A stretch of DNA of 64,000 nucleotides from a virus: the IMG/VR virus record IMGVR_UViG_3300045993_000918; one strand, given 5' to 3'. Position 1 is the stretch's first letter; every line of letters starts with the position of its first letter. A model generated the notes under the pieces. The model searched no databases, was not told where the DNA came from, and saw only the letters and a program-made list of their open reading frames with translations. The position numbers and the translations under genes were made by a program. Of this stretch, positions 20,035 through 64,000 are shown in pieces.

Positions 20035-20700
20035 TCAAGGCGCGAGCAGCGGGTGCTCCGCCGAGGCGATCAGCTCGAACCCTTCCGGCCCGGCGCCGAT
20101 CGCCGGGAGCTCCGGGCGGTGCAGCCGGATCGGCTCGATCGAGGGCTCGACGGTGGCGAACCGCGGATCCTGCGGGAGCTGGATCAGCCAGCCGCGCTGA
20201 AGGTCGGCCAGCGTCTCGCGCAGCAGCCGGATGCCCATCGGGAAGAGCGCCTCGGCCCACAGGTCGCTGGGGGTCCAGCGCGGGTCGACGTGGCAGAAGT
20301 CCTGCTTCGCGATCGGGCCGGTGTCGACCCCGGCGTCGGCGTAGAACCAGGTGAACCCGGTGACCGGGTCGCCCATCCGGACGGTCCACTCGACGCTCGA
20401 GCGCCCACGGTGCCGCGGGAGCAGGGAGGGGTGCCCGACCAGCGCACCGAGCCGGGTCGCCGCTCGGCTGTCCTTCCCGATGTAGGCGTGACAGTGTGCC
20501 GCGACGATCAGGTCGGCCTGCACCATCTTTACCCAGGCCGGGTGGAGCTCCGGCGCCCAGCTGAGGCCGTGGCGACCCGCAGCGTCATGCAGCTTGTCGT
20601 CGAGCGGCGCGACCACGCCGACGACTGCGTGCCCGTCCTTGAGCACCTGCTCGAGCGCGGCGACGCCGAACGACTTCGTGCCTGCAACGATGACCCTCAT
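20035..20700 (-). CDS. formyltransferase (Fmt/PurN/ArnA-like N-terminal domain)
   Basis: MRVIVAGTKSFG...HPSLLPRHRGRSSVEW...DAGVDTGPI motifs; SD AAGAGGTAGGGG. Confidence 0.7.
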   Translation of the reverse strand: MRVIVAGTKSFGVAALEQVLKDGHAVVGVVAPLDDKLHDAAGRHGLSWAPELHPAWVKMVQADLIVAAHCHAYIGKDSRAATRLGALVGHPSLLPRHRGRSSVEWTVRMGDPVTGFTWFYADAGVDTGPIAKQDFCHVDPRWTPSDLWAEALFPMGIRLLRETLADLQRGWLIQLPQDPRFATVEPSIEPIRLHRPELPAIGAGPEGFELIASAEHPLLAP

Positions 20701-20705
20701 GACCC

Positions 20706-21233
20706 CTACCTCTTGTACCTGAACCCGGCGACGCTTCTCCAATGGCCTCCAAACTCCATCTTCAAGTCCTTGCTCACCCGGCTCCCGGCCCCGCCGATCA
20801 GCTTCTGGCTGACCTGGTGCCAGTCCGGGTTCCGACGCAGCGCAGCGCAGAGCGCGGGGTGCGCGGTGTGCATCAGCGTCGGGACGGGCGAGCCGATGAA
20901 GCCGTCGCCGAGGAACTCGCGCTCAGCCAGGTGGTTCAGGAACCGCAGGCCCACGCCAGCACCCTGCCACTCCGGGTGCGTCACCATCCGGCAGGCTCGG
21001 GCGATCCGACGCTGGCCCGCCCAGAACCCGCTCATCCCGAGGAAGACGACCGGGTCGCCGCTGACCGCCTCGAACCCGGTGTAGGCGGTGCTGAACGGCA
21101 TCGGCTTCGCGTCGTGGAGGTAGTGGTGGTAGCGCGCCCACTCGAACCATGGACCCCAGCCCGTCTCGACCACCTCGAGCACGATCGGCTCGCGCTGGAA
21201 GATCTCGGGCGCCGCGAGCACCAGCTGCGTCAT
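20706..21233 (-). CDS. GNAT-like acetyltransferase
   Basis: 175 aa; THPEWQGAGVGLRFLNHL (Q/RxxGxG-type acetyl-CoA loop); ATGA overlap with ATPase stop. Confidence 0.55.
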   Translation of the reverse strand: MTQLVLAAPEIFQREPIVLEVVETGWGPWFEWARYHHYLHDAKPMPFSTAYTGFEAVSGDPVVFLGMSGFWAGQRRIARACRMVTHPEWQGAGVGLRFLNHLAEREFLGDGFIGSPVPTLMHTAHPALCAALRRNPDWHQVSQKLIGGAGSRVSKDLKMEFGGHWRSVAGFRYKR

Positions 21234-22532: not shown

Positions 22533-22781
22533 CTACGACGACCGCGGTTGCACCAGGTCGACGTACCCGTCGCGGATGAGCATCGTGATGTTCGCGCACG
22601 AGGCGCAGGTGATCCGGTCGTGCACCGTCACAGGAGCCGGGACCAAGTCGGTCCGGATCCCGCATAGGGTGCGGCCAGCCCCCATGATCGAGACATGGAG
22701 CTGGCCGCGGTACCCATCCTGGAGGTAGATCGTCCCGACCGTAGGTCGGGCCATCTGCCCTGTCTTCGGTATCCTGCCCAT
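22533..22781 (-). CDS. hypothetical protein (82 aa)
   Basis: Track ORF, plausible composition, abuts upstream stop. Confidence 0.55.
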   Translation of the reverse strand: MGRIPKTGQMARPTVGTIYLQDGYRGQLHVSIMGAGRTLCGIRTDLVPAPVTVHDRITCASCANITMLIRDGYVDLVQPRSS

Positions 22782-23638
22782 TACCCGCCCGTGCTCCCGA
22801 ACCCACGTTCACCGCGACCGTCCCCGGGGACGGCGGCGAACTCCTCCGGCGTAGCCCAGCTTGCGAAGTACTGGTTCGCGACGAGGTCGTGGAGGATCAG
22901 CTGCGCAACGCGCTCGCCAGCCTCCAGTATCACCTGCGTCGGAGACAGGTTCCGGACTCCGGCGAACAGCGGCCCGCGGTACCCCTGGTCGATGACCCCG
23001 TCGGCGACGAGCAGGCCCTTCCGCCGCAGCGTCGAGCTCCGACCGGTGATCCGCGCCCAGACCCCGGGCGGGAGGGCCGCGCGGACGCCGCACGGGACGT
23101 CAACGAATGAGTCGTGCCGGACCACGGTGCGCTCCGCGACGTAGAGGTCGAAGGCAGCGTCGCCCTCGTAGGCCCGGGTCGGGAGCACCGCGTCCGGATA
23201 GTCCGGCTCGGCCATGAACCGGAGCGGCTCACCAGCCAGCGCGGCAGTCTGCTCCCCGACCCAGGCCGCGAGACCGGGGGCGGAGGCGGTGCTGAACGGG
23301 AACCGGCGGCAGTCGGTCGCCGACCAGAGGTTCCCGTCCGCGACCACGGCGACGGGCTTCAGCATCGAGCGGGCGGCCTCGATCTCGCGCCCGACCCCGA
23401 GCGTCGGGATCCCCGGCGGGAGCAGCGCGACGACCACGTCGGCGGACCGCAGCGCCTCACGGTTGACGCGCTCGAGCCGAGGGTCCGGGGAGACCTGCGG
23501 GTGGACCAGGAACGCGCGCTCCGGACGGTAGACCAGGTGCTCCTGGAACCGAAGCTCGGAATCGATCTCGTCGAGGACGTGGTGCCAGCCGTCATCCTCT
23601 CCGGACCGGTCGACGGGTCGCGCCCTGTAGACGAACAT
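22781..23638 (-). CDS. fusion: nucleoside 2-deoxyribosyltransferase-like domain + trimeric dUTPase/dCTP deaminase-fold domain
   Basis: N-terminal ADVVVALLPPGIPTLGVGREIEAARSMLKPV (NDT/Rcl-like pattern). C-terminal GVIDQGYRGPLFAGVRN...GERVAQLIL...GERGFGSTG (dUTPase motifs). Confidence 0.65.
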   Translation of the reverse strand: MFVYRARPVDRSGEDDGWHHVLDEIDSELRFQEHLVYRPERAFLVHPQVSPDPRLERVNREALRSADVVVALLPPGIPTLGVGREIEAARSMLKPVAVVADGNLWSATDCRRFPFSTASAPGLAAWVGEQTAALAGEPLRFMAEPDYPDAVLPTRAYEGDAAFDLYVAERTVVRHDSFVDVPCGVRAALPPGVWARITGRSSTLRRKGLLVADGVIDQGYRGPLFAGVRNLSPTQVILEAGERVAQLILHDLVANQYFASWATPEEFAAVPGDGRGERGFGSTGG

Positions 23639-23943
23639 CAGGCCACCAGACCTTCGACCCGGGAGCAGAGCTGGTCCGAGAGAGCCTCGAGCTCGAACGG
23701 AGTGGTGCCGGGGTGGATCCTCGTCCGCTCGTGCTCCTCGTGGAACGCAGAGCGACCGCCAGGCCGCACCCAGGTGTCCACCACGAACTCACCCCCAGCG
23801 TACGCAGTCCGGACCCAGATCTCGCCGCTCGGATTGACCAGCTCGCCCGCGCTGTTCGCGTGGACGAACCCACAGGCGAGCAGCCTGTTGCGGAAGCCCT
23901 TGACCATCGCGGCGAGCCGCTCCGTCTGCTCCGTCGATCCCAT
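23638..23943 (-). CDS. hypothetical protein (101 aa)
   Basis: Track ORF; SD AGGAGTAAC. Confidence 0.6.
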   Translation of the reverse strand: MGSTEQTERLAAMVKGFRNRLLACGFVHANSAGELVNPSGEIWVRTAYAGGEFVVDTWVRPGGRSAFHEEHERTRIHPGTTPFELEALSDQLCSRVEGLVA

Positions 23944-24887: not shown

Positions 24888-25261
24888 CTCCCCGTCTCTC
24901 GTGCGAACATCGCCATCGAGGCGTACACCAGCGTGTCGCTCCAGGTGTCGAAGCTCGGCGTCTTGCCCTTGAGCATCGCATCGGCGACGCGCTGCACCTT
25001 CCCGTAGACGTAGAGGAAGCAGCCGATCTCGACGGCCTCCCGCTCCTCGATCTCGCGGCCCTGGCCGCGGGCGAAGATCCGGCCCATCTCGACCAGCGAG
25101 TTAGTCCCGTACTCCTCAGCCTTCGCCGCGATCGTCGGCGCGTTCGCGTCGACCCAGGCGTGGAACCAGTCCGGGTACGCGACCGGCGGGGCGACGACCC
25201 CGGTGATCGCGGACGGGTGCCGGGTCATCGACTCCGACCGCATGCCCTCCTCGTCCGTCAC
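24878..25261 (-). CDS. MazG-like all-alpha NTP pyrophosphohydrolase candidate (MazZ-like)
   Basis: 127 aa, GTGA-coupled to the purA-like gene. Acidic helix motifs AEEYG, EIEEREAVE, DTWSD. Assignment is by pattern and context only. Confidence 0.4.
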   Translation of the reverse strand: MTDEEGMRSESMTRHPSAITGVVAPPVAYPDWFHAWVDANAPTIAAKAEEYGTNSLVEMGRIFARGQGREIEEREAVEIGCFLYVYGKVQRVADAMLKGKTPSFDTWSDTLVYASMAMFARETGRWP

Positions 25262-26340
25262 AGCCAGGCCGATGGGTTGTAGACGCTCATCGTGTTCGGG
25301 CCCGTACCGACCAGCGCGACCGGCGCGGCAGCCTCGATCGCGATCGTGTCGAGGAAGTCGCGGTGCGTCTCCTTGAACTCGTCCGGCCGGGCATCACGCA
25401 GCTCCGGGTACTTCTGGTCGAGCATCGAGAGCGCGAGCACGACGTCGCGGCTCGGGCCGCCGTTCGCGCGCACCGCCTGGCTGACCCAGTCGGCGTCCCA
25501 GTCCCCGACGCGACGCACCTTCTTCGTCACCGTGGTCAGCTCCTCGGGCAGCCCGAGCGCCTCCCAGGTCGTCTCGGACGCGAGGTATCCGCTGTTGCCC
25601 GCGACGCGGATCGGATAGACCCGCACGACGACCACGACGCGGACCCGGCTCACGCCCTCGGCCCACGGGCTGACCCCGGCCATCGAGAGGAAGTCGATCG
25701 CCCGGCAGTCCGCCGTGGTGCACTTCGGGTAGTGCCCGGCGTGCAGCCCGAGCTGGTAGCCCTGGACGCCCTCGATCACGACGTGCCAGCCCTCGCTCAG
25801 GCGCCGGGAGAGCAGCGCCGCGGTGTTGACCACCCGGCCGGGCACCCCGCCGTTGACGGCGAAGTCGCCGATCAGCCGGGCGCCGCGCAGCATCCGGTCC
25901 GCCCGAGCGGCGCCGACGCCCTTCGCCGTCGAACCGATCGCCTTGTGCAGGTCGAGCGCAGCCTCGGTGTCCTTGTGCTTCTGCTCGATCACCGTCGACT
26001 CCGGGTCGACCCAGAGCCGATCCGCGATCCGGTGCCCGGCGGCCTCGAGCTCGGAGACCTCGGACCGGAGCACGTCGAGGTCGATCTCGGACCCGGCGGC
26101 GATCACCAGCGCGGCGTTCGGGTTGACGAAGCTGACGGGCACGTGCCGGAGTGGCCAGGCGCGGCCGGAGTCGTCGTAGACCGTGTGCCCAGCCTGGCTC
26201 CCCCCGACCCGCACCCCGACATGCGGGGTCTTCGAGCTCGCGTCCTCGTAGGCGAGGAAGCCGGTCGCGGCCCCCTTCGCCTCCGAGCCCGCCTGGCCGC
26301 CTACCACCACGGTGATCAGGCCCTGTCGTGAGATGGTCAT
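25258..26340 (-). CDS. purZ: short adenylosuccinate synthetase homologue, PurZ candidate
   Basis: 360 aa. Aligns by eye to PurA: GGQAGSEAKGA vs GDEGKGK P-loop (Asp to Ser), GGSQAGHTV, IGSTAKGVG, IEGVQGYQLG..GHYP, TTVTKKVRRVGDWD, VGTGPN. SD AGGAGGA. Confidence 0.7.
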   Translation of the reverse strand: MTISRQGLITVVVGGQAGSEAKGAATGFLAYEDASSKTPHVGVRVGGSQAGHTVYDDSGRAWPLRHVPVSFVNPNAALVIAAGSEIDLDVLRSEVSELEAAGHRIADRLWVDPESTVIEQKHKDTEAALDLHKAIGSTAKGVGAARADRMLRGARLIGDFAVNGGVPGRVVNTAALLSRRLSEGWHVVIEGVQGYQLGLHAGHYPKCTTADCRAIDFLSMAGVSPWAEGVSRVRVVVVVRVYPIRVAGNSGYLASETTWEALGLPEELTTVTKKVRRVGDWDADWVSQAVRANGGPSRDVVLALSMLDQKYPELRDARPDEFKETHRDFLDTIAIEAAAPVALVGTGPNTMSVYNPSAWL

Positions 26341-26417: not shown

Positions 26418-26426
26418 AGGCTACCA
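26418..26426 (-). promoter_or_regulatory. extended -10 TGGTAGCCT upstream of purZ candidate
   Basis: Overlaps the stop of the upstream gene. Transcript would begin just before the 11-bp hairpin at 26372..26406. Confidence 0.35.
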
Positions 26427-27818: not shown

Positions 27819-27848
27819 ATTTTACCACACGGCTTGCCTAAGAGGCCA
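27819..27848 (-). promoter_or_regulatory. promoter: -35 TGGCCT, 18 nt, TGG-TAAAAT
   Basis: GGCTGGCCTCTTAGGCAAGCCGTGTGGTAAAAT, hairpin leader, CTGAGAGGAGCACCACC-ATG. Confidence 0.55.
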
Positions 27849-27857
27849 GCCGGGAGC

Positions 27858-28337
27858 TCAAGGCTTCGGGGCGGCCAGCCGGATCGCGGCGGCGTCGAGC
27901 CGCAGGGCCGAGATGCCCACCGCCTCCGCGTCCTTCGCGTGCCCGCCATGCCCGTGCGCCCGCCACTGGTACCCGAGCGCGGAGGCGCGCTGGATCGAGG
28001 CCGAGCGGTTGGACGGCTCGATCGGGATCAGCGGCACCCCGGCCCAGCGGCACAGCGTCCGGATCACCCCGATCAGCTCGACCTCGGGGAACGTCGAGCC
28101 CTGCTGCTGCAGCGCGCCCTGACCGCCCCGCAGCCGGAAGGTCTCGTACGCGACTCCGAGACCACCGTTCGTCCCTACCGCGAGCAGATCACGCAGTGTG
28201 TCGGCGAAGTCGTTCGGCGTCAGCTCGACCGCGCTAGCGCAGGCCCAGAACCCCGGGTCGTCGGACCAGGTCGAGACGCCGACGTGCACACCGCCCGGGT
28301 CGACGGCGATCAGCCGGTGCAGCACGGGGTCAGGCAC
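27858..28337 (-). CDS. ruvC: RuvC-like Holliday junction resolvase
   Basis: IAVDPGGVHVG N-terminal Asp motif, HAKDAEAVG C-terminal motif, 159 aa. Confidence 0.7.
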   Translation of the reverse strand: MPDPVLHRLIAVDPGGVHVGVSTWSDDPGFWACASAVELTPNDFADTLRDLLAVGTNGGLGVAYETFRLRGGQGALQQQGSTFPEVELIGVIRTLCRWAGVPLIPIEPSNRSASIQRASALGYQWRAHGHGGHAKDAEAVGISALRLDAAAIRLAAPKP

Positions 28338-29563: not shown

Positions 29564-30021
29564 GTCCCCGCCTCCGTCGTCGGCTCAGCCGGGGCGCGAC
29601 GGATGTCCGCTGCCATCTGCGTCCGCACGCGGGCCTCGATGAGCGGGAGGACGGCGGCTACGGCGAGTGCGGCGAACTTCTCCCGCTCGTGGAGGTGCAG
29701 CGGACCCTCACTGACCTCGGAGTCGGCCATCGCCTCGCTCGCAGCCCGCACGATCGCCTCGTCGGAGATGTTCTCGCTGACGAGACGACGGCCGTGCCGT
29801 TCGATCGCGGCCAGGTGGTTCAGGAAGTCGGGGTGCGACGAGAAGGTGATGCCGCACTCCACACACTTGACTGGGCGGTACTCCACTACGGCTCGGTCGG
29901 TGGTCGGTGCGGGAGCGACGTAGGAGGGGCAGGCGCAACCTTCCTTGAAGCATTGAGGCCCTGCGGAGAAGTGCTGATACTTGTCGTGCGCGCAGTTGGC
30001 GCAGGCTCGGTCGGTGGTCAC
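29560..30021 (-). CDS. zinc-finger hypothetical protein (153 aa)
   Basis: Track ORF; CANCAHDKYQH...CFKEGCAC...CVECG. Confidence 0.65.
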   Translation of the reverse strand: MTTDRACANCAHDKYQHFSAGPQCFKEGCACPSYVAPAPTTDRAVVEYRPVKCVECGITFSSHPDFLNHLAAIERHGRRLVSENISDEAIVRAASEAMADSEVSEGPLHLHEREKFAALAVAAVLPLIEARVRTQMAADIRRAPAEPTTEAGT

Positions 30022-32009
30022 TTCTCGAACCCGCTCTCATCGCAGCTGCCGGGGATCCCGAAGTGCTCGAGCCAGGACTCGGCGGTCATCGCCTTGATCT
30101 GCGCGACGATCTCGTCGGCCTCGTCCTCGCGGAGGTCCAGGAGGACGGAGTCGTGGACGGTCAGCACCAGGGCCTCCTGCGGGGCGGTGAGCCGCTCGAC
30201 CATCGGGAGCCAGACGTTCCCGACCCAGCGCGCGAGGCTGCCCTGGACCCGGCGGTTCCAGGCCGTGTTCGGGTAGTCGGTCGGGCCGCCCATCCAGCTG
30301 AACGTCCCATCGTAGAGCGGCACCCGCTTGTTGACCTGCGCGTAGTCGCTCCAGCTCTCGTACTCAACGCCGAACTCCGGGTAGGACGCGCGCCAGGCCA
30401 CCACAGCGTCGCGGCAGCGCGAGAGCTCCCACTTGACCCCGGCGAGCTGCATCAGCGTCGCCTGGAACCGCGGCGCGCCGATCATGAAGATCGAGCCGAA
30501 GGTCAGCCGCTTCGCGATATCCCGGTACTCGCTCCAGCCCTCGTCGCCGGGGTGCAGCCCGAAGACCTGCGTGGTGGTCCGGCCGTGGAAGTCGGCCCCC
30601 TCGGCGAGGTCGGTGACCATGGGCTTGCAGTCCGCGAGCTGCGCAGCGATCCGGAGCTCAGCCTGCGCGAGGTCGAGGTTGACCCGCCGACGGCCCTCCG
30701 GCACGCCGAAGAGGCTGCGCGGCTCCGGCAGCACGTCCCCGAGCAGCGTGATCCCCGTGTGCTTCGGCAGCGCCTGCGCCTGGAACCGCTCGACGCTCAT
30801 CCGCCCCGACTTGACCCAGGCCTGGCGGAAGGACGTGCGCAGCCGACGGTCCGGTCCGGCGAGCTCCGCGTAGTTCCGGTAGAACATCCGGTTCGCCATC
30901 GTGAGGTCGACGAACTCCGCGTACTCGGCCGCGCCCGGCACGCCCTGGGCCGCCATCCGGCGCGAGACGTCAACGGTCAGCGTGCCCTGCTTCTCGACCT
31001 TCGTCTCGCCGGGCTTCTTGAGGTTCGGCGCGAGTACGCGGCGCTCCTCGCCCGGCTCCCACGGCGCGAGCCCGAGCTCGTCGAAGAAGTACGCCGTCGC
31101 GACCGTCGCAGTGGCCGGGGAGAACGGGAGCGCCGTCGCGAGGTCCGCGATCCGGGCCTCGACCCGGTCCGCGATCGCAGCGGAGCGCTCGACCTCGTAC
31201 GGCCCGAGGCCGCGGCGCTCGATCCGGTACAGGATCCGGGCCAGCCGGACCGCCGCGGCGTACTCCTCGTACGGCAGCTCGCCAGAGTCGATCCGCTCCA
31301 TCTGGAGCTCATGGAGCCGGAGCGCGAGCACCGCGTCAGCGAAGACGTACGGCCCGAGGATCTCCCACGGCACGAGGTCGTAGCGGGGCCCGTGCTCGGC
31401 CCGGAGCCCGTAGCGCTTCTTCACGTCGATCAGCGCCTGCCTCTGGTCGGCGGCCTCCTCGACCGCCTCAGCTCCCCAGTACCTCGCCGCGGTCGGCTTC
31501 AGCGACGTGGTCCCGGCGGTCGGGTCGAGCACGCTCGTGCCCAGCATCGTGTCGTAGAGCTTCCCGGCCGGGATGTACGGCTCGATGTCGACACCGCACC
31601 AGCCCCAGGGCGCCCCGCCGCGGAGCATGTGCATGTCGAACTTGACGTTCTGGTTGACGTACCCGACGCGGCTCACGGCGCGTACGATCCAGTCCAGCAG
31701 GTAGTCCCACTCCTCACGGGGGAGGTTCGGCTGCGGGTCCTCCCAGCTGTCGTTGCCCCCGCGGGCGGCGCCGGACTTGAGTCGCTGGACCGAGAAGCCC
31801 TTCCGGGCGGAGTCCCCGACGTCGAACGGGAAACCGTGCGCCTGGATGAAGCCGGGGTCGTCGGAGCGGCGGTAGGCCAGGCCGCCCGCGACGGTGTAGG
31901 CGCCGTCGTCGACGAACAGCCCGGTCGTCTCCAGGTCGGCGCACAGCGGCCCGACGAGCAGCTCCGGGTCGGGCAGGACCATGCTGGGAAGCTCGAGTTC
32001 GAAGGTCAT
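30018..32009 (-). CDS. family A DNA polymerase with 3'-5' exonuclease domain (DpoZ candidate)
   Basis: Exo I CADLETTG; motif A NLDLAQAELRIAA; motif B RDIAKRLTFGSIFMIG; motif C VLTVHDSVLLD. ATG 6 nt downstream of TGGTAGGCT. Confidence 0.85.
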   Translation of the reverse strand: MTFELELPSMVLPDPELLVGPLCADLETTGLFVDDGAYTVAGGLAYRRSDDPGFIQAHGFPFDVGDSARKGFSVQRLKSGAARGGNDSWEDPQPNLPREEWDYLLDWIVRAVSRVGYVNQNVKFDMHMLRGGAPWGWCGVDIEPYIPAGKLYDTMLGTSVLDPTAGTTSLKPTAARYWGAEAVEEAADQRQALIDVKKRYGLRAEHGPRYDLVPWEILGPYVFADAVLALRLHELQMERIDSGELPYEEYAAAVRLARILYRIERRGLGPYEVERSAAIADRVEARIADLATALPFSPATATVATAYFFDELGLAPWEPGEERRVLAPNLKKPGETKVEKQGTLTVDVSRRMAAQGVPGAAEYAEFVDLTMANRMFYRNYAELAGPDRRLRTSFRQAWVKSGRMSVERFQAQALPKHTGITLLGDVLPEPRSLFGVPEGRRRVNLDLAQAELRIAAQLADCKPMVTDLAEGADFHGRTTTQVFGLHPGDEGWSEYRDIAKRLTFGSIFMIGAPRFQATLMQLAGVKWELSRCRDAVVAWRASYPEFGVEYESWSDYAQVNKRVPLYDGTFSWMGGPTDYPNTAWNRRVQGSLARWVGNVWLPMVERLTAPQEALVLTVHDSVLLDLREDEADEIVAQIKAMTAESWLEHFGIPGSCDESGFEK

Positions 32010-32015: not shown

Positions 32016-32024
32016 AGCCTACCA
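32016..32024 (-). promoter_or_regulatory. extended -10 TGGTAGGCT, leaderless DNA polymerase start
   Basis: 6 nt upstream of ATG 32009. Confidence 0.45.
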
Positions 32025-32049
32025 CAGGGGTCCGACAATCGGGCTCCCC

Positions 32050-32213
32050 CGCACAAGAGCGGAGGCGGCCGAAGGCTTGGGGCCCCGGCCGCCTCCTGAC
32101 CCGCCTAGGGCCGCACTGATCGGCGGGGTCGTACCGAATCCGGGTGCGCACCCGGGCGGCCCTCGTTCACGACCCCGGCGGGGCGGAAGGCACCAACCCA
32201 CACCCCGCCGGGG
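32050..32213 (-). ncRNA. candidate small RNA 2 (about 160 nt)
   Basis: Starts at 11-bp hairpin 32173..32213 behind TGGTACGCT, contains CCGGGTGCGCACCCGG, ends at hairpin 32062..32095. Confidence 0.3.
32062..32095 (-). terminator. 9-bp GC stem-loop (gaggcggcc / ggccgcctc)
   Basis: Perfect inverted repeat, followed on the minus strand by CGCTCTTGT. Sits just upstream of the polymerase promoter. Confidence 0.45.
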
Positions 32214-32219
32214 AGCCCC

Positions 32220-32228
32220 AGCGTACCA
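32220..32228 (-). promoter_or_regulatory. extended -10 TGGTACGCT inside non-coding region
   Basis: Directly followed by the 11-bp hairpin 32173..32213. Confidence 0.35.
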
Positions 32229-32249
32229 CGCGGAGGCACGACTCTGGCT

Positions 32250-32478
32250 CGGAGGAAAGAGGCCTCGGCCCCCGAGGTCACCGTGGCTGAAGACGGAACC
32301 TCGAGGGCCGAGCCTGCCCGTTCCCTAGTTCTGCTCTCCAGACACACACGCGGTGGGCCAACCGTCCTGGAGCGGCTCCGCGGTAACGACCGGCATGCCG
32401 CGGTTTCTCAAGTGGGGCCCCGCCGCTACTGTTGTCCCCGTAGGCAGTGCGCTCCGAACCCGACCCGGTCTGAGATCT
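32250..32478 (-). ncRNA. candidate small RNA 1 (about 225 nt)
   Basis: Bounded by the TGGTACGAT promoter and hairpin CCUCGG-GGG-CCGAGG followed by CUCUUUCC. Internal stems CCGCGG...CCGCGG and GGAGC-C-GCUCC. No convincing SD-led ORF. Confidence 0.3.
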
Positions 32479-32484
32479 GAACCG

Positions 32485-32493
32485 ATCGTACCA
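32485..32493 (-). promoter_or_regulatory. extended -10 TGGTACGAT inside non-coding region
   Basis: Just downstream of the stop at 32519. Confidence 0.35.
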
Positions 32494-32518
32494 GCCGACC
32501 TGGCTACTCTGTCTCGCG

Positions 32519-32779
32519 CTACTCGTCCCGCCCGTACGACCCGTCGCGGGCCTTCCGCAGCAGCCGGATCAGCCGGTTGATCGCGGACCGGTCGAGGTTC
32601 TCGGTGTAGAGCCCGTCGCGGTACGCCTCGAGCTCGTTGGCCGGGGCGGTCACCCCGAGCTGGACCGTCCCGACGTTGTCCCAGCCGATGTCGATCCGGC
32701 TGACGACTACGCCTTCGACCTCGCGGCCGTCCGCATCTGCGACGGTCCGGCTCACGCTTACGCTCTCCCTGGGCATCAC
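32519..32779 (-). CDS. hypothetical protein (86 aa)
   Basis: Track ORF; SD GGAAGGAGGG. Confidence 0.6.
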   Translation of the reverse strand: MMPRESVSVSRTVADADGREVEGVVVSRIDIGWDNVGTVQLGVTAPANELEAYRDGLYTENLDRSAINRLIRLLRKARDGSYGRDE

Positions 32780-34646: not shown

Positions 34647-35392
34647 CAGGCGACCCGCAGGTCGACCGCAGCGAGCATGCCTGGCCCGGGCGTCGTGAGG
34701 TCGCCGCGGAGCCAGCCGAGGCTGTGCGTCACGGCGGCCTGGTAGCGGTAGACCGCCTCCGTCATCGCCTTCGTCTCGTTCCCGTAGTAGCCGGTCGCAC
34801 CGTTCGGGTTGAGCGTCCCGAGCCGTCCGACCTTCGCGAGGAACGCCCGGAGCGCCCGCTGGTAGACCAGCACGTCGTTGTTCCGGAGCCCGTAGCGCAG
34901 CAGCGCGAGGTGCACGGCCGGTCGGGTCAGAGCGTCGCGCGCAGCAGCGATGTCCGCTGGGTACCGGTCGTACCAGCGCTGGAACGCGGCCTGGATCATC
35001 GACCAGGCCTCGAGGTTCGAGTCGTGGAGGTTCCCAGCCCAGCCGGTGAGCCCGAGCCCCCAGGTCCCCCAGTTCGATCCCCCGCCGGTCCACTTGAACG
35101 CGAGCGAGGCGTTGAATGCGGGCTCGAGGATCTTCGCCCAGTCCGCCTCACCGATCCCGGGACGGTGCACGCTCTCGTTGATCTGGAACAGCCCGTAGTC
35201 GTACGAGCCGTTCGGGTTCGGTCCGCCGACGATGTCGTAGTACCCGCCGGACTCGGCCATCGCCTTCGCCCAGGCGGTCCGGCGCCGGTAGAGACCGACC
35301 GGGCTGGTGGTGGTCGGGTAGTCCGGGTCGGGGAATCCCGCCTCGATGAGGGCCTGGTCGAGCGCGAGGGCGTCGAGCTTGTGTAGGGTCAT
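34646..35392 (-). CDS. lysozyme-like lytic transglycosylase with C-terminal cell-wall-binding-like domain
   Basis: AESGGYYD...YDYGLFQINESVH (GH23/SLT-type motif). C-terminal LVYQRALRAFL...GYYGNETKAMTEAVYRYQ. Confidence 0.65.
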   Translation of the reverse strand: MTLHKLDALALDQALIEAGFPDPDYPTTTSPVGLYRRRTAWAKAMAESGGYYDIVGGPNPNGSYDYGLFQINESVHRPGIGEADWAKILEPAFNASLAFKWTGGGSNWGTWGLGLTGWAGNLHDSNLEAWSMIQAAFQRWYDRYPADIAAARDALTRPAVHLALLRYGLRNNDVLVYQRALRAFLAKVGRLGTLNPNGATGYYGNETKAMTEAVYRYQAAVTHSLGWLRGDLTTPGPGMLAAVDLRVA

Positions 35393-35721
35393 GCCGACGA
35401 GTCTACCGGACCGTCCCCTTGCTCAAGCTCTACCGTGGTCTCGGCCACCAGCCGCTGCACCACGTCCTCGGCGGGGTCCTCCTGATCGCGCTTGGCGATG
35501 TCGGCTTCCTGGGCGACCTCGACCCGGGCCGCCTGCCACGCGGACCAGTGACCCGAGACCAGCGCCCACAGCGAGAGCGCGGAGACGTAGGCGACGATGT
35601 TGACCCAGCCGGTGGCGAAGCTGACCGGGATCATCGCCACCCAGAAGATCGTCAACCAGCCGTTCACCCGGCGCATGAAGACCGGGTCGCCCTGCACCGA
35701 GGCCCACAGCGACTTGATCAC
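35389..35721 (-). CDS. two-helix membrane protein (holin-like, by position)
   Basis: GTG 35721 (GTGA overlap); WLTIFWVAMIPVSFATGWVNIVAYVSALSLWALV; ATGA-coupled to the transglycosylase. Confidence 0.5.
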   Translation of the reverse strand: MIKSLWASVQGDPVFMRRVNGWLTIFWVAMIPVSFATGWVNIVAYVSALSLWALVSGHWSAWQAARVEVAQEADIAKRDQEDPAEDVVQRLVAETTVELEQGDGPVDSSA

Positions 35722-35906
35722 GCGATCGCCCTCCCGCTCTGGGCGGCGCAGTCGGAGCACTCAGCCCCGGTCTGGATCCGGTCGTAGATCCCATCGGACG
35801 GGAACGTCACGTGCCGCAGGTACCGCTCGCCCGGATCGATCCGCCGATCGCATCCCCCGCACCGGTGCGGCTTCCGGGCGGTGCGAGTCTGCACCTTCCA
35901 GCTCAC
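35718..35906 (-). CDS. small Cys protein (62 aa)
   Basis: GTGA-coupled; HRCGGCDRRI...CSDC. Confidence 0.45.
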   Translation of the reverse strand: MSWKVQTRTARKPHRCGGCDRRIDPGERYLRHVTFPSDGIYDRIQTGAECSDCAAQSGRAIA

Positions 35907-36085
35907 GCGGTCGCCCTCCAGGTCGCCGCGATCGCGCCGCGCAGCCACTCCGCTGCGCAGGACTCCGCCTCGTACGGGGACCAGTCGTCGGCCAGGAGCT
36001 TGGCTCGGAGTCCCTTCGCCGCCTCTAGGATCGGGTCCAGCTGCTCCATCGCGGTGACCAGGGCCTCGGCCAGTTCGTCGCTCAC
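35903..36085 (-). CDS. small helical protein (60 aa)
   Basis: GTGA overlap with purB stop; MSDELAEALVTAMEQL... Confidence 0.45.
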   Translation of the reverse strand: MSDELAEALVTAMEQLDPILEAAKGLRAKLLADDWSPYEAESCAAEWLRGAIAATWRATA

Positions 36086-37278
36086 GACGAGCCCTCCTCG
36101 TCGGCCACGGAGGCCTCTTTCGTCGCCTCGGGGGCACCGGTGGGTCCTGGCCCCCGACCGGCCCCTCGCCCGACCTCGTAGGCGGCTTCGTGGCTCATCC
36201 CGTCGGCGACCCGACGCCACAGCTCGGCTGGGCTCTCCGGGATCCGGGCGAGGTTCGCCTCGCAGACCCGGGCGTCGACGGTCAGACCGCGAGCGACGTT
36301 CGTCGCCTCGACCAGGCAGTACGCCGTGAGTCCGACCAGCTGGGGGACCACGACCCGCTCGACGCTGCTCGCGGAGAGGTCGCGCTGGTCCCACCAGACG
36401 ACGTTGGCGTCGAGCGCCCCCGCTAGTGCCCGCGTGACGCGCTCGAGCCCACAGATCCGCTCGGACCGAGTCGGGTTCTGCTTGAACGCCATGCTCGAGC
36501 TCCCGACGTAGCGCGAGACTCCGGTCGGCTCGAAGAGCTCACCGTCGCGGGCCCCGAGCCGGACCTGTAGCGCGAAGTGCGCCGCGGCGGTCGCGAGGTC
36601 GGCGACGCTCCGGCCCCACCGCGCGATCTGGTCCCGCCGGACAGCCTGCTCCGAGTGCGACTCGAGCACGACTCCGAGCATACCGGAGGCCCGTACGGCA
36701 GCCTGCCGACTGAACGTCTCGTACCGCCCCGTCGGACCGCCGAGGCTGGCCCGGAGCCCGGCGGTGGCGTCGAAGAGCTCCATCCTGGCGCCGAGCACCC
36801 GGGCGGCCCAGGCCTGGCCCTGGACCGAGAGGTACGAGGCCTCCGCGAGCTGGCCGTGCGTCCTAGAGGCCCGCGCCACCGAGGGCAGCGCTTCGAGCGT
36901 CTGACCGAGCGTCCCAGCCTCTGCCCCGAGCCAGGAGGCCGCGGAGTGCAGCGTCATCACCAGGCTCGTGTCGACCAGATTCGAGGACGTGAGCCCGAAG
37001 TGGACCCAGTCCCGGGTATCGGACGCGACGACTTCGCGGACCACGGAGAGGAACGCAGCGACGTCGTGCCCGAGCTCAGCCTCCCTCTGGGCCATCACGA
37101 CGAAGTCGGTCTCGTTGAACCGGTCCGGGACCGTGTCAGGCTCGACCGAGCTCGGGACCAGCCCGTGGGCCCGGGCAGCCCGGAGCACCTCGCGGCTCAC
37201 GGCCAGCCACCCCGCAGCGGTCGCCTCGGCGGAGAACAGGTCCTCGACCCACTGGACAGAGTAGCGATCGGTCGTCAT
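36082..37278 (-). CDS. purB: adenylosuccinate lyase
   Basis: Fumarate-lyase signature GSSSMAFKQNPTRSE, WVHFGLTSSNLVDTSL, RTHGQLAE, WWDQRDLSASSVER. Collinear by eye with bacterial PurB. ATG 7 nt downstream of TGGTAGACT. Confidence 0.85.
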   Translation of the reverse strand: MTTDRYSVQWVEDLFSAEATAAGWLAVSREVLRAARAHGLVPSSVEPDTVPDRFNETDFVVMAQREAELGHDVAAFLSVVREVVASDTRDWVHFGLTSSNLVDTSLVMTLHSAASWLGAEAGTLGQTLEALPSVARASRTHGQLAEASYLSVQGQAWAARVLGARMELFDATAGLRASLGGPTGRYETFSRQAAVRASGMLGVVLESHSEQAVRRDQIARWGRSVADLATAAAHFALQVRLGARDGELFEPTGVSRYVGSSSMAFKQNPTRSERICGLERVTRALAGALDANVVWWDQRDLSASSVERVVVPQLVGLTAYCLVEATNVARGLTVDARVCEANLARIPESPAELWRRVADGMSHEAAYEVGRGAGRGPGPTGAPEATKEASVADEEGSS

Positions 37279-37280
37279 GC

Positions 37281-37445
37281 TCAGGAGTCTACCACAGGGA
37301 CGCGGAGCTCGAGCTCCTGGCGGCCAGTACCGGCGCAGCGCGGACAGCGAGCCAGCGTGCTGAGCAGAGCCCCGGTGAGCCGGTCGGTGACCGTCACGGG
37401 CACTCGACCGTCCGAGCAGCTCGGGCAGGGCGCGGACTCAGCCAC
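37281..37445 (-). CDS. small zinc-ribbon protein (54 aa)
   Basis: Hand-found; CPSCSDG...CPRCAGTG; overlaps upstream stop. Confidence 0.4.
   Translation of the reverse strand: MAESAPCPSCSDGRVPVTVTDRLTGALLSTLARCPRCAGTGRQELELRVPVVDS
37286..37294 (-). promoter_or_regulatory. extended -10 TGGTAGACT, leaderless purB start
   Basis: 7 nt upstream of ATG 37278. Confidence 0.45.
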
Positions 37446-37719
37446 GGCCGCTCGCCTCCCGACGCATCTCGTCCTGGACCCGACCGAGCTCGGCCAGAGC
37501 GGCGAGGCGAACGTCCGTGGTGCTCTGCTCGGCCCACGGGGTCGTGCGTCGGGTCACGCCCCAGGCCGTCGCCGCAGCCAGCGCCAGCGTCGCGTGGACC
37601 TGAGCCTCGAGCAGCTCGGTGGTCGCCTCGAGGCTGTCGAGCTCCCCTGCGGCCTCGATCGCCGCCAGGGCCGCCTGACCTTCCCGGACGTACCGGTCGT
37701 ACTCACCCTGCTCGCTCAC
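37438..37719 (-). CDS. hypothetical helical protein (93 aa)
   Basis: Tail of track ORF 37438..38016; GTG 37719 after GGAGG. Confidence 0.5.
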   Translation of the reverse strand: MSEQGEYDRYVREGQAALAAIEAAGELDSLEATTELLEAQVHATLALAAATAWGVTRRTTPWAEQSTTDVRLAALAELGRVQDEMRREASGRG

Positions 37720-37792
37720 GCCGTGCCTCCGAGGTCCAAATCTGCTATTTTGTCCGGGGCGGAACTCGTGGCCCCGTACTAGAATTGCTCCC

Positions 37793-37798
37793 ATCCTA
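37793..37798 (-). promoter_or_regulatory. -10 TAGGAT
   Basis: CGGTAGGAT, then hairpin CGGGGC...GCCCCG and GGAGG before GTG 37719. Confidence 0.3.
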
Positions 37799-37830
37799 CC
37801 GCCGACCTGCGCGGTTCCGTCTCCTGGGCT

Positions 37831-38134
37831 GATTGGGCGATGTCCCCGCGGACCTCGCGCGTTACGGCGCAAGCGCGCGGCGCGAGACGTACGCGGCGCC
37901 CGCGTGCATAACCCCGTCTGATCGCCCATACCGCCCAATGACCCCTTTAAGACCCTCTTTTCCGCGGAAGAAGCATTGGCCGGACCCCTCCCAATGACCT
38001 CCCAATCGCCGCCCAATGACCCCCTCCCAGCCGCCCAATCGCCTCGTTTGCCTCAAAGGCCCGCACCTCCCAGTCACGCCCCCCATACTGATTGGGAAGC
38101 CCCATTGGGCGGCTATTGGGTGGGTCATTGGGCG
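37831..38134. repeat. iteron array: CCCAAT(G/C)(A/G)CC direct copies facing inverted ATTGGG copies
   Basis: Direct copies at about 37933, 37990, 38001, 38012, 38034. Inverted copies at about 37832, 38081, 38104, 38115, 38127. Palindrome TTGCCTCAAAGGCC at 38048..38061 lies between the two sets. Confidence 0.7.
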
Positions 38135-38137
38135 ACC

Positions 38138-41128: not shown

Positions 41129-41157
41129 ACGATACCACTCGCGTCGGCGGGAGGCCA
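41129..41157 (-). promoter_or_regulatory. promoter: -35 TGGCCT, 17 nt, TGG-TATCGT (primase-helicase)
   Basis: Leader hairpin CCCGGTC...GACCGGG then GAGAGGAGCGGGGC-GTG. Confidence 0.5.
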
Positions 41158-60703: not shown

Positions 60704-61543
60704 TCAGACCGCCGACGGGTCGTTCAGGGCCTGCAGCCAGGTCATGCCGCGGTCAAGCAGGACCTGCCACGTGGCGTTCCCGTCCTTGACCTCTTGCCAG
60801 GAGTTCCCGACCTTCGTCATCTGCGCGACGTCCGGCTCGGCTGCGACGGCATAGGGCAGCACCCAGCGCCGCTCCGGCCGACGGACGTCCGGTATGACTC
60901 GACTGATCGAGACGTCCCCGATCTGGGCGTAGAACATCGCGTGCTCGGGGTCGGCCTCCTCGGGGATCCGGACCAGCACGACTCGGCCGGAGCTGAGGAT
61001 GGCGCGCAGCGCCTCCGCTTCGTTGGCCGTGTGCGTGAGCACCTCGAAGGAACCGGAGGCGCTGGAGCGGACCCCGCCGACCGCGACACGGTCGGGTCTC
61101 CCGATCACGTCGAAGACCACCCCGCGAGCGGTGAGCGTCTGGTCCTGCGACCCGTACGACCAGGTGCCGACCGCCTCGAGCCCGGGGTTGACCGGGTCGT
61201 TGACCACGACTGGGTAGCAGCCCGCAGGCGAGCTCGGGAACGGCATCGTGATGTCGATCGTAGCCGAGTGGTCGATGGCGTCGACGGTGTACGTCACGTC
61301 GTAGTAGGTGATCCCGCCGAGGCGCGGGGCCGCGTCGGCGATCACTAGCACGTCGTTCCCGGAGACGGCCTCGGCGTTCGCGTTCGCGAGCGTCTGCGCG
61401 GTCAGCCGCTGGTTGTCACGCCGCTTGATCGTGATGACGGTCGGCTGGTTGGAGGCAGTGGTCGCGATGATCCGGACCGAGCCCTGAGTGGCGGGCTCCA
61501 CCAGGACGTTGCCGTAGACACCGATGACTGCTGAGCTGCTCAC
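60704..61543 (-). CDS. distal tail (Dit-like) minor tail protein
   Basis: 279 aa immediately downstream of the tape measure gene. Confidence 0.55.
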   Translation of the reverse strand: MSSSAVIGVYGNVLVEPATQGSVRIIATTASNQPTVITIKRRDNQRLTAQTLANANAEAVSGNDVLVIADAAPRLGGITYYDVTYTVDAIDHSATIDITMPFPSSPAGCYPVVVNDPVNPGLEAVGTWSYGSQDQTLTARGVVFDVIGRPDRVAVGGVRSSASGSFEVLTHTANEAEALRAILSSGRVVLVRIPEEADPEHAMFYAQIGDVSISRVIPDVRRPERRWVLPYAVAAEPDVAQMTKVGNSWQEVKDGNATWQVLLDRGMTWLQALNDPSAV

Positions 61544-64000
61544 AGCTGACCCACCCCGACCCTGGCGTAGACGGCGTTCCGCGCGGCGGCGCTGCTCCCG
61601 CGGTCGACCTCTACCTTCACGATGTCGGTGAGCTCGCGGTCGCCGATGAAGACCCGGACCTCTCCGACTCCCCCTCCCGTGAGTGCCGCGATCAGCGCCC
61701 TGTCACGGTTGCTCAGGCCGTTCTGGTCGAGCGGCTCGACGCGCTCCGGCCGACCCGCCTCGGCGATCGTTGCCAGCACGCCCCCAGGACGCGGGAAGAC
61801 GGTACCACCGGCGGCGAGCCGAGGGATCGTCGGGATATCCGGTCCGGGGACGTTGTTCAGGATGTCGATCGCGCCGTTCGCCTTGTCGATGATCCACTCG
61901 TTGATCCAGTCCTTGATCGAGTTGAAGGCGCCCTTCACCCCGTTAGAGACGGTGGTCCAGACGGCTCCGAGCACCTTGCCAAGACCCTCCCAGATCCCCT
62001 TGACCTGGTTGTATACGACCTGGAACGCCGTGCGGATCGGGTCTAGCGCTGTCCCGATCGCGCTGGTGATCGTGGACCAGACCCCGCTGATGAACGTGCC
62101 GATCCTCCCGAACCAGGTCGAGGCCCAGGTCCAGATCGATCGGAACACCCCGCCGATCCACCCGGCGACTGTACTGATCCGCGCCCAGATCCAGCCGAAG
62201 ACGGTCGAGACCACGGTCCAGACGGCGTTCCAGACGGTGCTGGCGACCTTGAACATGATCTGGAACCAGATCCCGATCATGGTGACGACCTTCCCGACGA
62301 TCGCGTAGATCGCCTGGAACACCCACGAGACGACACCCCACATGGCCTGGAAGGCCCCGACGAGTACGGTCCCGATGAACTTCCCGACCTCGAACAGGAC
62401 GTTCCACATCGCCGTGACGATCGGCACCACGTAGTCGCGGATCCAGCCGAACACGGTGACGGTGATGGCCCACAGCGCCTTGAACGCAGCGACCAGCACG
62501 TTGACGATGAACTTCCCGACCTCGAACAGGACGTTCCAGACGTTCCGGAGGATCGGGATCAGCGTGCCCGTGATCCAGCCGAAGACCGCCGTGAGGACGG
62601 CCCACCAGATCTTGAAGGCCCCGACCAGGACCCCTCCGACAAACTTCGCAACGGTGACCAGGATCGGGAAGACGTTATCTCGGATCCAGCCGAAGACGCT
62701 CTGGATGATCGGGAGCGCGGTGTCCTGGAACCAGGCCCAGACCGACTGCATCTTCTCCCACATCCAGAGGGCACCAGCTACGATCACTTCCCACGCCTTG
62801 TCGATCGCGGCGCGGAACCAGTCGACGTTGTTGTAGGCCCAGATCAGCCCGGCGATGAGCGCGGCGATCGCGGCGGCGATCACGATCAGCCATCCGACGC
62901 TGATCCCGAGCGCGGCAGACAGTGCCGCCACGGCTGGGATCACGATCGACCGGATGACCGTCGTTGCGATCCACTGCAGCAGACCGCCGACAAGCTTGAG
63001 TACCCCGCCGAACCCGGGGATGAAGCTGACCGCCTTGAGGAACGCGAAGATCGAGAGTGTCCACCCGGCGATCTGCCCGATGACTGGGGCGGCCAGGATC
63101 TTTGCCAGCACGGTGAAGACCGTCTGCAGGGCGGTGGTGAACGCGCCGAGCGCCCCGCTCTTTCCCATCTGCTCGAAGAAGTCGCCGATCGAGGCGAACA
63201 GCGCGCTCAGCCCTGGTCCGGCGTTGCTGAACGCTTTCGCGATCTGGACCAGTGTCGGGAGGATCTGCGTGCGGATCGTCTTGATGAACTCGATCGTACC
63301 CTTGTTCCCGCCCCCGGTCATGCCTTCACCCAGCAGCCGGAACACGTCGCCGATCAAGCCGTTGAACTCGTGCACCACGGGGAGCGCGTCGGCGAACCAC
63401 TTCGACATCTTGTTCTTCCCGCCGACCGAGCTCGTCCAGGTCGCCCACTTCAGCGTCAGCGCCTCGATCCGATCGAGCAGCGTCTGCCCGGCCGGAGAGG
63501 CGGCCTTGAGAACGTCCCAGATCGCGTAGAAGACGTTGTGGAAGATCCGCCCGAGTTGGCTCGCGCTCTTGCCAGCTCGCTCCATGAACGCAGCGAGCTT
63601 GCCGTTGGCCTCGCCGTTCTTCGCGGCGAGGTTCGCACCGACCGCGAGCTTCTCGACCCACTTCCCGAACTGCTCGGTGAGCGGTCGGGCGGCGGAGAGC
63701 AGGATGACCGCCGTGTCGGCGATCGCGACGAACGCTGTGCCGAAGCTGCGCAGGGCGTTGTTGTTGCCCTTCATCACGTTTGCGAGCCGGGCCTGGAACA
63801 GCGGGTTCTCCGTCATCGCGGCGAACTGGCCCGAGATGCGCCCGACGATCCGGCCAGTCTGGACGAGCCGAGCCTGCATCGTCGGGAGCACCGCGTCGGT
63901 GATCCGGGTCAGCGACTGCCCGAAGACCGGCAGCACCTCGCGCTGGATCGCCTGCCCGACCTTCGACCACTCCTTCCCGATCGCGGAGGTGACCTCCTTG
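61540..64000 (-). CDS. tape measure protein, N-terminus beyond right edge
   Basis: Reading frame stays open to base 64000. Hydrophobic helical repeats VFGWIRD..P....WNVLFEVGKFI..VLV.AF. Precedes Dit/Tal-like genes. Confidence 0.8.
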   Translation of the reverse strand, partial: KEVTSAIGKEWSKVGQAIQREVLPVFGQSLTRITDAVLPTMQARLVQTGRIVGRISGQFAAMTENPLFQARLANVMKGNNNALRSFGTAFVAIADTAVILLSAARPLTEQFGKWVEKLAVGANLAAKNGEANGKLAAFMERAGKSASQLGRIFHNVFYAIWDVLKAASPAGQTLLDRIEALTLKWATWTSSVGGKNKMSKWFADALPVVHEFNGLIGDVFRLLGEGMTGGGNKGTIEFIKTIRTQILPTLVQIAKAFSNAGPGLSALFASIGDFFEQMGKSGALGAFTTALQTVFTVLAKILAAPVIGQIAGWTLSIFAFLKAVSFIPGFGGVLKLVGGLLQWIATTVIRSIVIPAVAALSAALGISVGWLIVIAAAIAALIAGLIWAYNNVDWFRAAIDKAWEVIVAGALWMWEKMQSVWAWFQDTALPIIQSVFGWIRDNVFPILVTVAKFVGGVLVGAFKIWWAVLTAVFGWITGTLIPILRNVWNVLFEVGKFIVNVLVAAFKALWAITVTVFGWIRDYVVPIVTAMWNVLFEVGKFIGTVLVGAFQAMWGVVSWVFQAIYAIVGKVVTMIGIWFQIMFKVASTVWNAVWTVVSTVFGWIWARISTVAGWIGGVFRSIWTWASTWFGRIGTFISGVWSTITSAIGTALDPIRTAFQVVYNQVKGIWEGLGKVLGAVWTTVSNGVKGAFNSIKDWINEWIIDKANGAIDILNNVPGPDIPTIPRLAAGGTVFPRPGGVLATIAEAGRPERVEPLDQNGLSNRDRALIAALTGGGVGEVRVFIGDRELTDIVKVEVDRGSSAAARNAVYARVGVGQL
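62077..62754 (-). repeat. tandem hydrophobic repeats of about 37 aa inside the tape measure
   Basis: VFGWIRDNVFPIL.. / VFGWITGTLIPILRNVWNVLFEVGKFIVNVLVAAF / VFGWIRDYVVPIVTAMWNVLFEVGKFIGTVLVGAF / VFGWIWARI.. Confidence 0.7.

Follow-up and report, generated by a model that had tools for sequence, protein, structure and literature searches.

The 64,000-nucleotide stretch analysed here, IMG/VR virus record IMGVR_UViG_3300045993_000918 (hereafter the window), has a G+C content of 69.7% and carries nearly all of its genes on the minus strand. Among them is a purB-like gene for an adenylosuccinate lyase (ASL), located at 36082..37278 on the minus strand, which starts with ATG at 37278, ends with TGA at 36082-36084 and encodes 398 amino acids (aa). 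The initial annotation had recognized a PurB at this position from short motifs, all of which are present in the 398-aa open reading frame (ORF): GSSSMAFKQNPTRSE at residues 259-273, WVHFGLTSSNLVDTSL at residues 91-106 and RTHG at residues 139-142. It had also placed the sequence TGGTAGACT 7 nucleotides (nt) from the ATG. This extended -10-like promoter motif, with the hexamer TAGACT, occupies 37286..37294 and reads from 37294 to 37286 on the minus strand, separated from the ATG by the spacer CCTGAGC. The strand, which had been left unstated, is minus for purB and for TGGTAGACT alike.

TGGTAGACT falls within the final 15 nt of an upstream 54-codon ORF (37281..37445, minus strand), which has a GTG start with GGGAGG 9 nt upstream and a TGA stop 2 nt before the purB ATG. 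Its product would be a candidate zinc-ribbon protein of 54 aa (CPSC...CPRCAGTG). The two CxxC pairs, a weak match to the DnaJ zinc finger, the GGGAGG and a G+C fraction at third codon positions (GC3) of 0.80 favour this ORF as a gene; it remains unconfirmed because the Logan gene caller passed over it and no homologue was found, including by tblastn against phages. Further upstream is a 93-aa gene (37438..37719, minus strand), which has a homologue in the related contig L004, where it does not adjoin purB. The next promoter-like motif upstream, CGGTAGGAT (37793..37801, minus strand), would drive both the 93-aa gene and the 54-codon ORF. We considered and rejected an N-terminal extension of purB into this region: the frame is open to 37437 and contains no ATG, GTG or TTG there, its GC3 is 0.66, and homology starts at residue 4.

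On the 3′ side, the GTG start of a 60-aa ORF (35903..36085, minus strand) overlaps the purB stop codon in the sequence GTGA. This is the first of three small ORFs, extending to 35389, that follow purB. The next leaderless-type promoter, CGGTAGACT (35400..35408, minus strand), lies 7 nt before the ATG (35392) of an SLT_3 lysozyme-like gene, and likewise sits in the 3′ end of the ORF preceding that gene. Because the GTGA overlap is followed by two more small ORFs and then by the next promoter, it is likely that purB and the three small ORFs form one transcription unit, with CGGTAGACT as its likely downstream limit.

The window protein matches the Pfam family Lyase_1 (PF00206; E=2e-12), and its best match in NCBIfam is TIGR00928 purB (198.6 bits, E=1.6e-58), with pcaB next at 118.7 bits. 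Its best sequence matches in the Protein Data Bank (PDB) are the ASLs of T. maritima and B. subtilis (E=4e-35 and 2e-29, respectively), the alignment to the T. maritima enzyme stopping at residue 374 of 431. An AlphaFold2 model built from 26 sequences (pLDDT 89.6, pTM 0.87) has the three-domain helical fold of ASLs, with the last ~21 residues (378-398) predicted to be disordered. When this model was compared with the PDB by Foldseek, the top 50 matches were all ASLs (TM 0.74-0.81; ~0.80 to 1c3c). Assignment as a 3-carboxymuconate cycloisomerase (pcaB) was rejected on the basis of the lower score, the presence of an R-Y pair for the nucleotide phosphate and the structural matches, which are to ASLs. 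We conclude that, by sequence and predicted fold, the window protein is an adenylosuccinate lyase of the ASL/PurB-like type.

The residues expected of such an enzyme can be located individually. The superfamily signature G-S-x2-M-x2-K-x-N is present as GSSSMAFKQN (residues 259-268), with S260/S261, K266 and N268, the loop being unusual in having MA instead of MP. T140/H141 (general acid), H71/D72 and H93 of the window protein align with T140/H141, H68/D69 and H89 of the B. subtilis enzyme. Further B. subtilis residues with equivalents in the window protein are T93/S94 (T97/S98), Q212 (Q211), S262/S263 (S260/S261, the signature-loop base), K268 (K266), N270 (N268), E275 (E273), R301 (R299), S306 (S304) and R310 (R308). 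These residues presumably play the roles assigned to them by mutagenesis in B. subtilis. The set that binds the phosphate and ribose of the nucleotide is also present, namely R5/Y6 (phosphate), Q211, R274, R299, S304 and R308, and is invariant or nearly so in the clade of relatives described below; the list is that of PMC13539675, with the L. major numbering mapped by motif equivalence and not by direct alignment. The position of the ribose-contact Asn is occupied by Gly70 in the window protein.

The surroundings of purB are the replication/nucleotide module of a PurZ-encoding phage with a predicted gene set for exchanging adenine for 2-aminoadenine (Z) in its DNA. PurZ (succino-amino-deoxyadenylate synthase, an adenylosuccinate-synthetase homologue; 25258..26340, minus strand, with a CAGGAGG Shine–Dalgarno sequence) scores 314.9 bits against NCBIfam NF038379, above the cut-off of 300. 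It has Ser at the position of PurA Asp13 and a GSEAKG motif that aligns with the PurZ of phages Ghobes and Hiyaa, and is 47-51% identical to actinophage PurZ. The purZ candidate had been placed about 10 kb from purB; the distance is 9.7 kb. A 335-aa protein (22781..23788, minus strand) fuses a nucleoside deoxyribosyltransferase (NDT)-like N-terminal domain, in which Nuc_deoxyrib_tr is weakly matched (E=0.009), to a C-terminal dUTPase (E=8e-22). Aligned from end to end with Hiyaa gp69, it shows 35% identity. It shares its architecture with the DmtZ/DutZ (NDT-Dut) protein of Arthrobacter phage Wayne (PMC12884076), and is a putative dATP/dGTP-removing enzyme. The family-A DNA polymerase (30018..32009, minus strand) is 33% identical to Ghobes PolI and is preceded by TGGTAGGCT (32016..32024), 6 nt before its ATG. 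Also found around purB are an SNF2-type helicase, a PD-(D/E)XK nuclease, AAA_24 and DUF669 proteins, a 981-aa protein and two lysozyme/transglycosylase-like proteins.

We then asked how often purB and purZ occur together in phages, a survey that the initial annotation had proposed. Against GenBank phages the window PurB-like protein matched 25 records, 11 of them annotated actinophages: six Gordonia phage records, which include Ghobes, Frizzle, Sapo and Archimedes, and five Streptomyces phage records, which include Hiyaa, Keanu, Spocter and Galactica. The gene is annotated in these 11 as 'adenylosuccinate lyase' or 'PurB-like adenylosuccinate lyase', and Ghobes and Hiyaa also have an annotated PurA-like (PurZ) gene. 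With the window PurZ as the query, 199 phage records were returned, among them exactly six Gordonia and five Streptomyces; the five Streptomyces records are identical in the two lists, and for Gordonia the agreement is that of the count and of Ghobes itself. All bona fide actinophages with a PurB-like gene (six Gordonia, five Streptomyces) therefore belong to groups that also have PurZ. No PurB match was found among the PurZ records of Arthrobacter (105), Microbacterium (18), Vibrio (38) and Acinetobacter (10) phages. Pairing is seen in the Gordonia and Streptomyces groups, and purB is absent from most PurZ phages. The pairing is not new, being already present in the public annotation of Ghobes-like Gordonia and Hiyaa-like Streptomyces phages, and the window purB is a new, divergent member of it.

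A search of 5.8 billion proteins revealed a sharply separate clade of 12 clusters that are 37-62% identical to the window protein. Clade proteins have 358-428 aa (all but one have 358-394 aa) and Lyase_1 as their sole domain; beneath them in the search came cellular PurBs of 430-450 aa, with ADSL_C and 30-36% identity. A clade profile gave 446-544 bits for members and at most 294 bits for cellular PurBs; an intermediate hit of 304 bits (P0091) is a 199-aa fragment on a JGI metagenome contig, 100% identical to the window protein. Conserved within the clade are the Gly before the first His (G70), TSSN for TSSD, GGPxG for SGAVG, NPTRSE, WWDQRD for LWHERD and SASS for SHSS. Three members (P0005, P0006 and P0008) have a Cys-rich C-terminal tail (e.g. 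PCLVCGDESGRLHACR) in the place of the absent domain-3 helices, which may be a small zinc-binding addition.

The clade is rare and resides in phage replication modules. A scan of IMG/VR with the clade profile found no relatives, and a scan of JGI metagenomes found one clade member (L007), the remainder being cellular PurBs of ~35% identity. A scan of 185,579 GTDB reference genomes returned only a 25%-identical cellular PurB, and the clade therefore does not correspond to any known prophage gene. When positions 35000-39000 were compared with GenBank phages by megablast, nothing matched, which leaves the phage without a close relative among those sequences. A 59.5-kb Logan contig encodes an identical protein, and part of this phage was also seen in a JGI metagenome. 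Among the clade contigs, L004 has a PolA 84% identical to that of the window. L005 has a PolA 78% identical and, ~9 kb downstream, a PurZ 74% identical, giving the order purB, PolA, PurZ as in the window. In L024 the order is PD-(D/E)XK, AAA_24, DUF669, large protein, purB, PolA. PurZ was found in both cases in which the contig reached far enough.

Two annotated phage lyases and the cellular enzymes provide useful comparisons. Ghobes gp36 is, like the window protein, a phage ASL homologue that accompanies PurZ (gp50), PolI (gp39) and Dut-like genes; the order purB, PolI, PurZ, Dut is the same as in the window, and gp36, with 377 aa, also ends just after the 'AY' helix. It differs in being 33% identical, in keeping TSSD, in having Tyr in place of His at the His93 position and HE for HD, in lying on the strand opposite to PolA/PurZ, and in having no TANNNT 6-7 nt before the purB start. 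The ASL homologue of phage Hiyaa, gp76, is encoded ~4.4 kb downstream from PurZ (gp67) and the NDT-Dut-like gp69; it is 32% identical to the window protein and differs in its full length of 457 aa, with a different C-terminus, its motifs TSSD, GSSAMPHKRNP and HHERD being canonical. In a rough neighbour-joining tree the clade joined Ghobes gp36 in 100/100 bootstraps; its grouping with Hiyaa gp76 was weaker (73/100), and long-branch attraction is possible. Cellular PurB of the B. subtilis/T. maritima type (TIGR00928; 1c3c, 1f1o) shares the fold, the catalytic His and Ser residues, the signature and the nucleotide-binding residues, whereas identity is 27-36% and the phage protein is ~55 residues shorter at the C-terminus, falls below the family cut-off and has the clade-specific substitutions.

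We now turn to the expression of the gene. Leaderless mRNAs in actinobacteria have a TANNNT hexamer 6-8 nt from the start codon and no Shine–Dalgarno sequence. In the window, TGGTANNNT occurs 18 times on the coding (minus) strand and not at all on the other, compared with 3.5 occurrences expected for both strands, and none of 100 shuffles reached 18. With the motif relaxed to YGGTANNNT, the coding strand has 31 occurrences and the other strand five; example motif sites, all on the minus strand, are 58767-58775, 50156-50164, 41129-41137, 32016-32024, 27819-27827 and 16566-16574. At 6 of the 21 TGNTANNNT sites the ATG or GTG of a high-GC3 ORF follows at exactly 6-7 nt, where 0.45 would be expected (binomial p=4e-6); besides purB and the DNA polymerase, the six include four smaller genes. 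Over all TANNNT sequences, a plausible start is most often found 6-7 nt away (11 cases, of which at least two look like internal chance matches).

About one third of the YGGTANNNT motifs lie 6-7 nt before a start codon, and the others are followed by leaders with GGAGG-type ribosome-binding sites. Genes with the leaderless geometry have no Shine–Dalgarno sequence, and genes with leaders of 18-90 nt, PurZ included, have GGAGG-type sites. At purB, TAGACT is followed by 7 nt and the ATG, with CCTGAGC and no GGAGG upstream of the start. A generic sigma-70 (-35/-10) scan of 33-42 kb found nothing, and no -35 or other conserved position accompanying the motif was recognizable. In its TANNNT with a TGN/YGG extension 6-7 nt before ATG or GTG, its lack of a Shine–Dalgarno sequence and its lack of a recognizable -35, the arrangement predicted from the window sequence resembles that of actinobacterial leaderless transcripts.

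The geometry is also retained in relatives. Upstream of the purB orthologues we find CGGTACGAT with a 6-nt spacing in L004, CGGTAGGAT with 6 nt in L005 and TGGTAAGGT with 7 nt in L024, the last counted from the first of two adjacent ATGs, so that YGGTAnnnT is kept 6-7 nt before the purB ATG in all three, despite upstream genes unrelated to those of the window. The PolA promoter TGGTAG(G/A)CT, with a 6-nt spacing, is present in the window, L004 and L005, and the SLT_3 motif at +6/+7 is present in the window and L004. At PurZ, a -10-like hexamer lies exactly 46 nt upstream in two phages (TGCTACGAT in the window and CGGTAGGAT in L005). Two promoter-like motifs in fact precede purZ on the minus strand of the window, TGGTAGCCT at 26418-26426, which overlaps the TAG stop of a transglycosylase-like gene, and TGCTACGAT at 26387-26395. 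Because of the motif enrichment and the recurring 6-7 nt spacing, the leaderless reading of purB is one case of a genome-wide pattern. The independent leaderless expression of purB suggested in the initial annotation is thus backed by a strand-specific motif family, a recurrent geometry and conservation in relatives, and appears a sound prediction.

Our preferred interpretation, which we hold with some confidence, is that the phage carries an ASL-family enzyme that relieves it of dependence on the level or specificity of host PurB, and that the purB unit is expressed from the TGGTAGACT leaderless promoter. In this scheme PurZ would condense dGMP with aspartate to give succino-amino-deoxyadenylate (dSMP), and the phage lyase would strip fumarate from dSMP to give dZMP. 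Host kinases would turn dZMP into dZTP for incorporation by the phage polymerase, and the NDT-dUTPase fusion would lower the dATP pool. The TGGTAGACT extended -10 promoter would start the purB transcript at or next to the ATG, yielding a leaderless mRNA that needs no Shine–Dalgarno sequence. The proposal that both committed Z steps are phage-encoded gains support from the presence in one genome of a candidate ASL and of a PurZ above its curated cut-off, and the phage probably needs no host enzyme for the second step. We infer the substrate of the lyase, the reason for carriage of the gene, the start point of transcription and the Z-substitution of the DNA.

This scheme departs from the published Z pathway (PurZ/PurZ0, host PurB and host kinases, with DatZ, MazZ, DutZ, DmtZ and DpoZ) at one point. 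PurZ, an NDT-Dut fusion and a PolA, a candidate DpoZ, are present in the window, whereas the phage has its own gene available for the conversion of dSMP to dZMP, a step that the Z-pathway papers covered all assign to bacterial PurB (PMC12884076; PMC12783734; bioRxiv 10.1101/2025.10.22.683976). Among those papers, none mentions a phage PurB.

Several observations weigh against our interpretation, and we consider them here together with the alternatives to which they lead. L026 and L028, which are distant clade members, have no TANNNT and use a stop–start overlap, and because TGGTAGACT lies inside an ORF with its stop 2 nt from the purB ATG, translational coupling on a longer mRNA is possible. 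purB might then lack a dedicated promoter and share one transcript, begun at the 37793..37801 site, with the 93-aa and 54-aa ORFs, its translation relying on termination–reinitiation at TGA-GC-ATG; TGGTAGACT would be mere coding sequence (V-V-D-S-stop), and the good Shine–Dalgarno sequence and two CxxC pairs of the 54-codon ORF fit such an arrangement. We find this doubtful, since the motif family shows strong and strand-specific enrichment, with the 6-7 nt spacing at six to eleven starts, and since three purB orthologues keep both motif and spacing, with intergenic distances of 37-43 nt in L004 and L005 and unrelated upstream genes. Moreover, the SLT_3 promoter, which L004 has kept, likewise lies within the ORF upstream of its gene, and GTA would be a rare codon choice at a genome GC3 of ~0.9. 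A dedicated promoter and translational coupling can also coexist.

The sequences before the purB-like genes of L026 and L028 deserve a brief description. At L026 2170-2197 and L028 713-740, small ORFs end in ...GTGGTTG(G/A)CTGA directly before the purB-like GTG. The ending resembles the GTGGTAGACTCCTGA of the window, but has T for the essential A of the -10 hexamer. These ORFs are unrelated to the 54-aa ORF despite their similar ...VVD/VVG-stop ending, which might be the remnant of a promoter or have arisen by chance.

A further point against our interpretation is that purB is not required for the Z pathway, since most PurZ phages do without it. The gene could instead be a general auxiliary metabolic gene, an ordinary PurB that converts SAICAR to AICAR and adenylosuccinate to AMP and boosts purine supply with no link to Z. 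Canonical PurB is bifunctional and the window protein retains all of the canonical residues; in addition, some phages that carry purB, Microcystis phage MaAM05 among them, show no evident connection with Z. This explanation seems unlikely to us, because, among actinophages in GenBank, every PurB-like gene found is from a group that has PurZ too, and because gene order links purB with PolA, PurZ and Dut. Extra AMP would also run counter to the dATP-depleting logic of Z phages (PMC12884076), and no further genes of de novo purine synthesis were identified, the formyltransferase at 20035..20922 fitting Fmt better than PurN.

The remaining adverse points concern the enzyme itself. The score of 198.6 bits does not reach the curated TIGR00928 cut-off (326.2 bits) and covers model positions 3-380 of 436; ADSL_C (PF10397), the greater part of which is absent, was not detected in the protein, in which PF00206 was the only domain found. 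The clade stops just past the 'EAAYE' helix, so that the last ~55 residues, corresponding to three domain-3 helices, are missing. Near the active site, TSSD has become TSSN100, GSSAMPH has become GSSSMAF and WHERD has become WDQRD, Gly70 precedes the conserved His, and the His93 equivalent, kept in the window protein, is lost in nine of the 12 other clade members. The literature covered holds no activity data for any phage PurB-like protein. The description 'clear PurB' in the initial annotation is therefore borne out as to family, fold and residues, and has to be tempered for a protein that is divergent, C-terminally shortened and below the curated purB cut-off.

Because of the clade-specific active-site changes and the His93 losses, the substrate could differ. 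A diverged lyase that acts on another succinylated or carboxylated nucleotide in some other modification, or that has lost catalysis, would be in keeping with the low score, the truncated C-terminal subdomain and the substitutions in conserved regions C1 and C3, yet we judge it highly improbable, as the general acid, general base and nucleotide-binding residues are invariant or nearly so across the clade, the R-Y pair being invariant, the fold matches ASLs and not other superfamily members, and Ghobes gp36 is similarly truncated and PurZ-paired. PMC13539675 assigns every catalytic and substrate-binding residue of ASL to domain 1 or 2, leaving C-terminal domain 3 with none.

A more specific proposal, which we put forward tentatively, is that the short clade (the window protein, the 12 clusters and perhaps Ghobes gp36) represents a dedicated 'PurB-Z', a lyase peculiar to phages and tuned to dSMP as a 2'-deoxy, 2-amino substrate. 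If so, the enzyme would have lost part of domain 3 and gained Gly70, Asn100, NPTRSE and WWDQRD, and might discriminate against adenylosuccinate and so avoid adding to the pool of A. A conserved leaderless promoter of its own would serve the gene, and both committed Z steps would be independent of the host.

Returning to our preferred interpretation of a phage lyase that lessens dependence on host PurB, the tracking of PurZ by a phage lyase in at least three actinophage lineages suggests that host PurB can be limiting in some hosts, or that its substrate range is ill-suited to the deoxy-2-amino intermediate. For specialists the interest lies in a step that the cited Z papers assign to the host, in the residue signature of the short clade and in the conserved promoter. 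A compact, self-contained pair of PurZ and PurB would also be of practical use where Z-DNA synthesis is to be engineered in a heterologous host. Finally, the ~25-30 conserved -10-only promoters, about nine of them convincingly leaderless, amount to a transcription-unit map for an uncultured high-GC phage.

Other features of the window were noted in the course of this work. A near-identical block of ~35 nt, CCCGGCTGGCCT(G/C)(C/T)TAGGCAAGCCGTGTGGTAAAAT, is present at two promoter sites on the minus strand (50156-50200 and 27819-27863), in both cases followed by a similar leader (CCTGAGAGGA..CACC-ATG), and may be a duplicated regulated promoter or operator. The ~500 nt upstream of the DNA polymerase gene (32025-32520, minus strand) contain no convincing ORF; they hold two more TGGTACG(A/C)T motifs (32485-32493 and 32220-32228) and several inverted repeats of 11-15 nt, and could encode small RNAs or be a regulatory region or an origin. 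Rfam returned no family in the window, 32025-32520 included, and neither tRNAs nor a terminal redundancy were found in the window.

Adjoining the nucleotide module is a formyltransferase-domain protein (20035-20922, minus strand), unusual for a phage, with a Formyl_trans_N match at E=7e-21; in NCBIfam it comes closest to Fmt and then to ArnA and PurN, with scores that all fall far short of the cut-offs. Its neighbours on the minus strand are a P-loop/ABC-like ATPase (21230-22042) and a ParB_N-domain protein (21922-22494), the latter with its own leaderless-type promoter. A 455-aa protein encoded at 55109-56476 (minus strand) has a family-2 glycosyltransferase domain and, at its C-terminus, TPR repeats. 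Within a large ORF (61540..63999, minus strand), which continues beyond the right end of the window, there is a direct repeat with a period of 132 nt (62372-62540).

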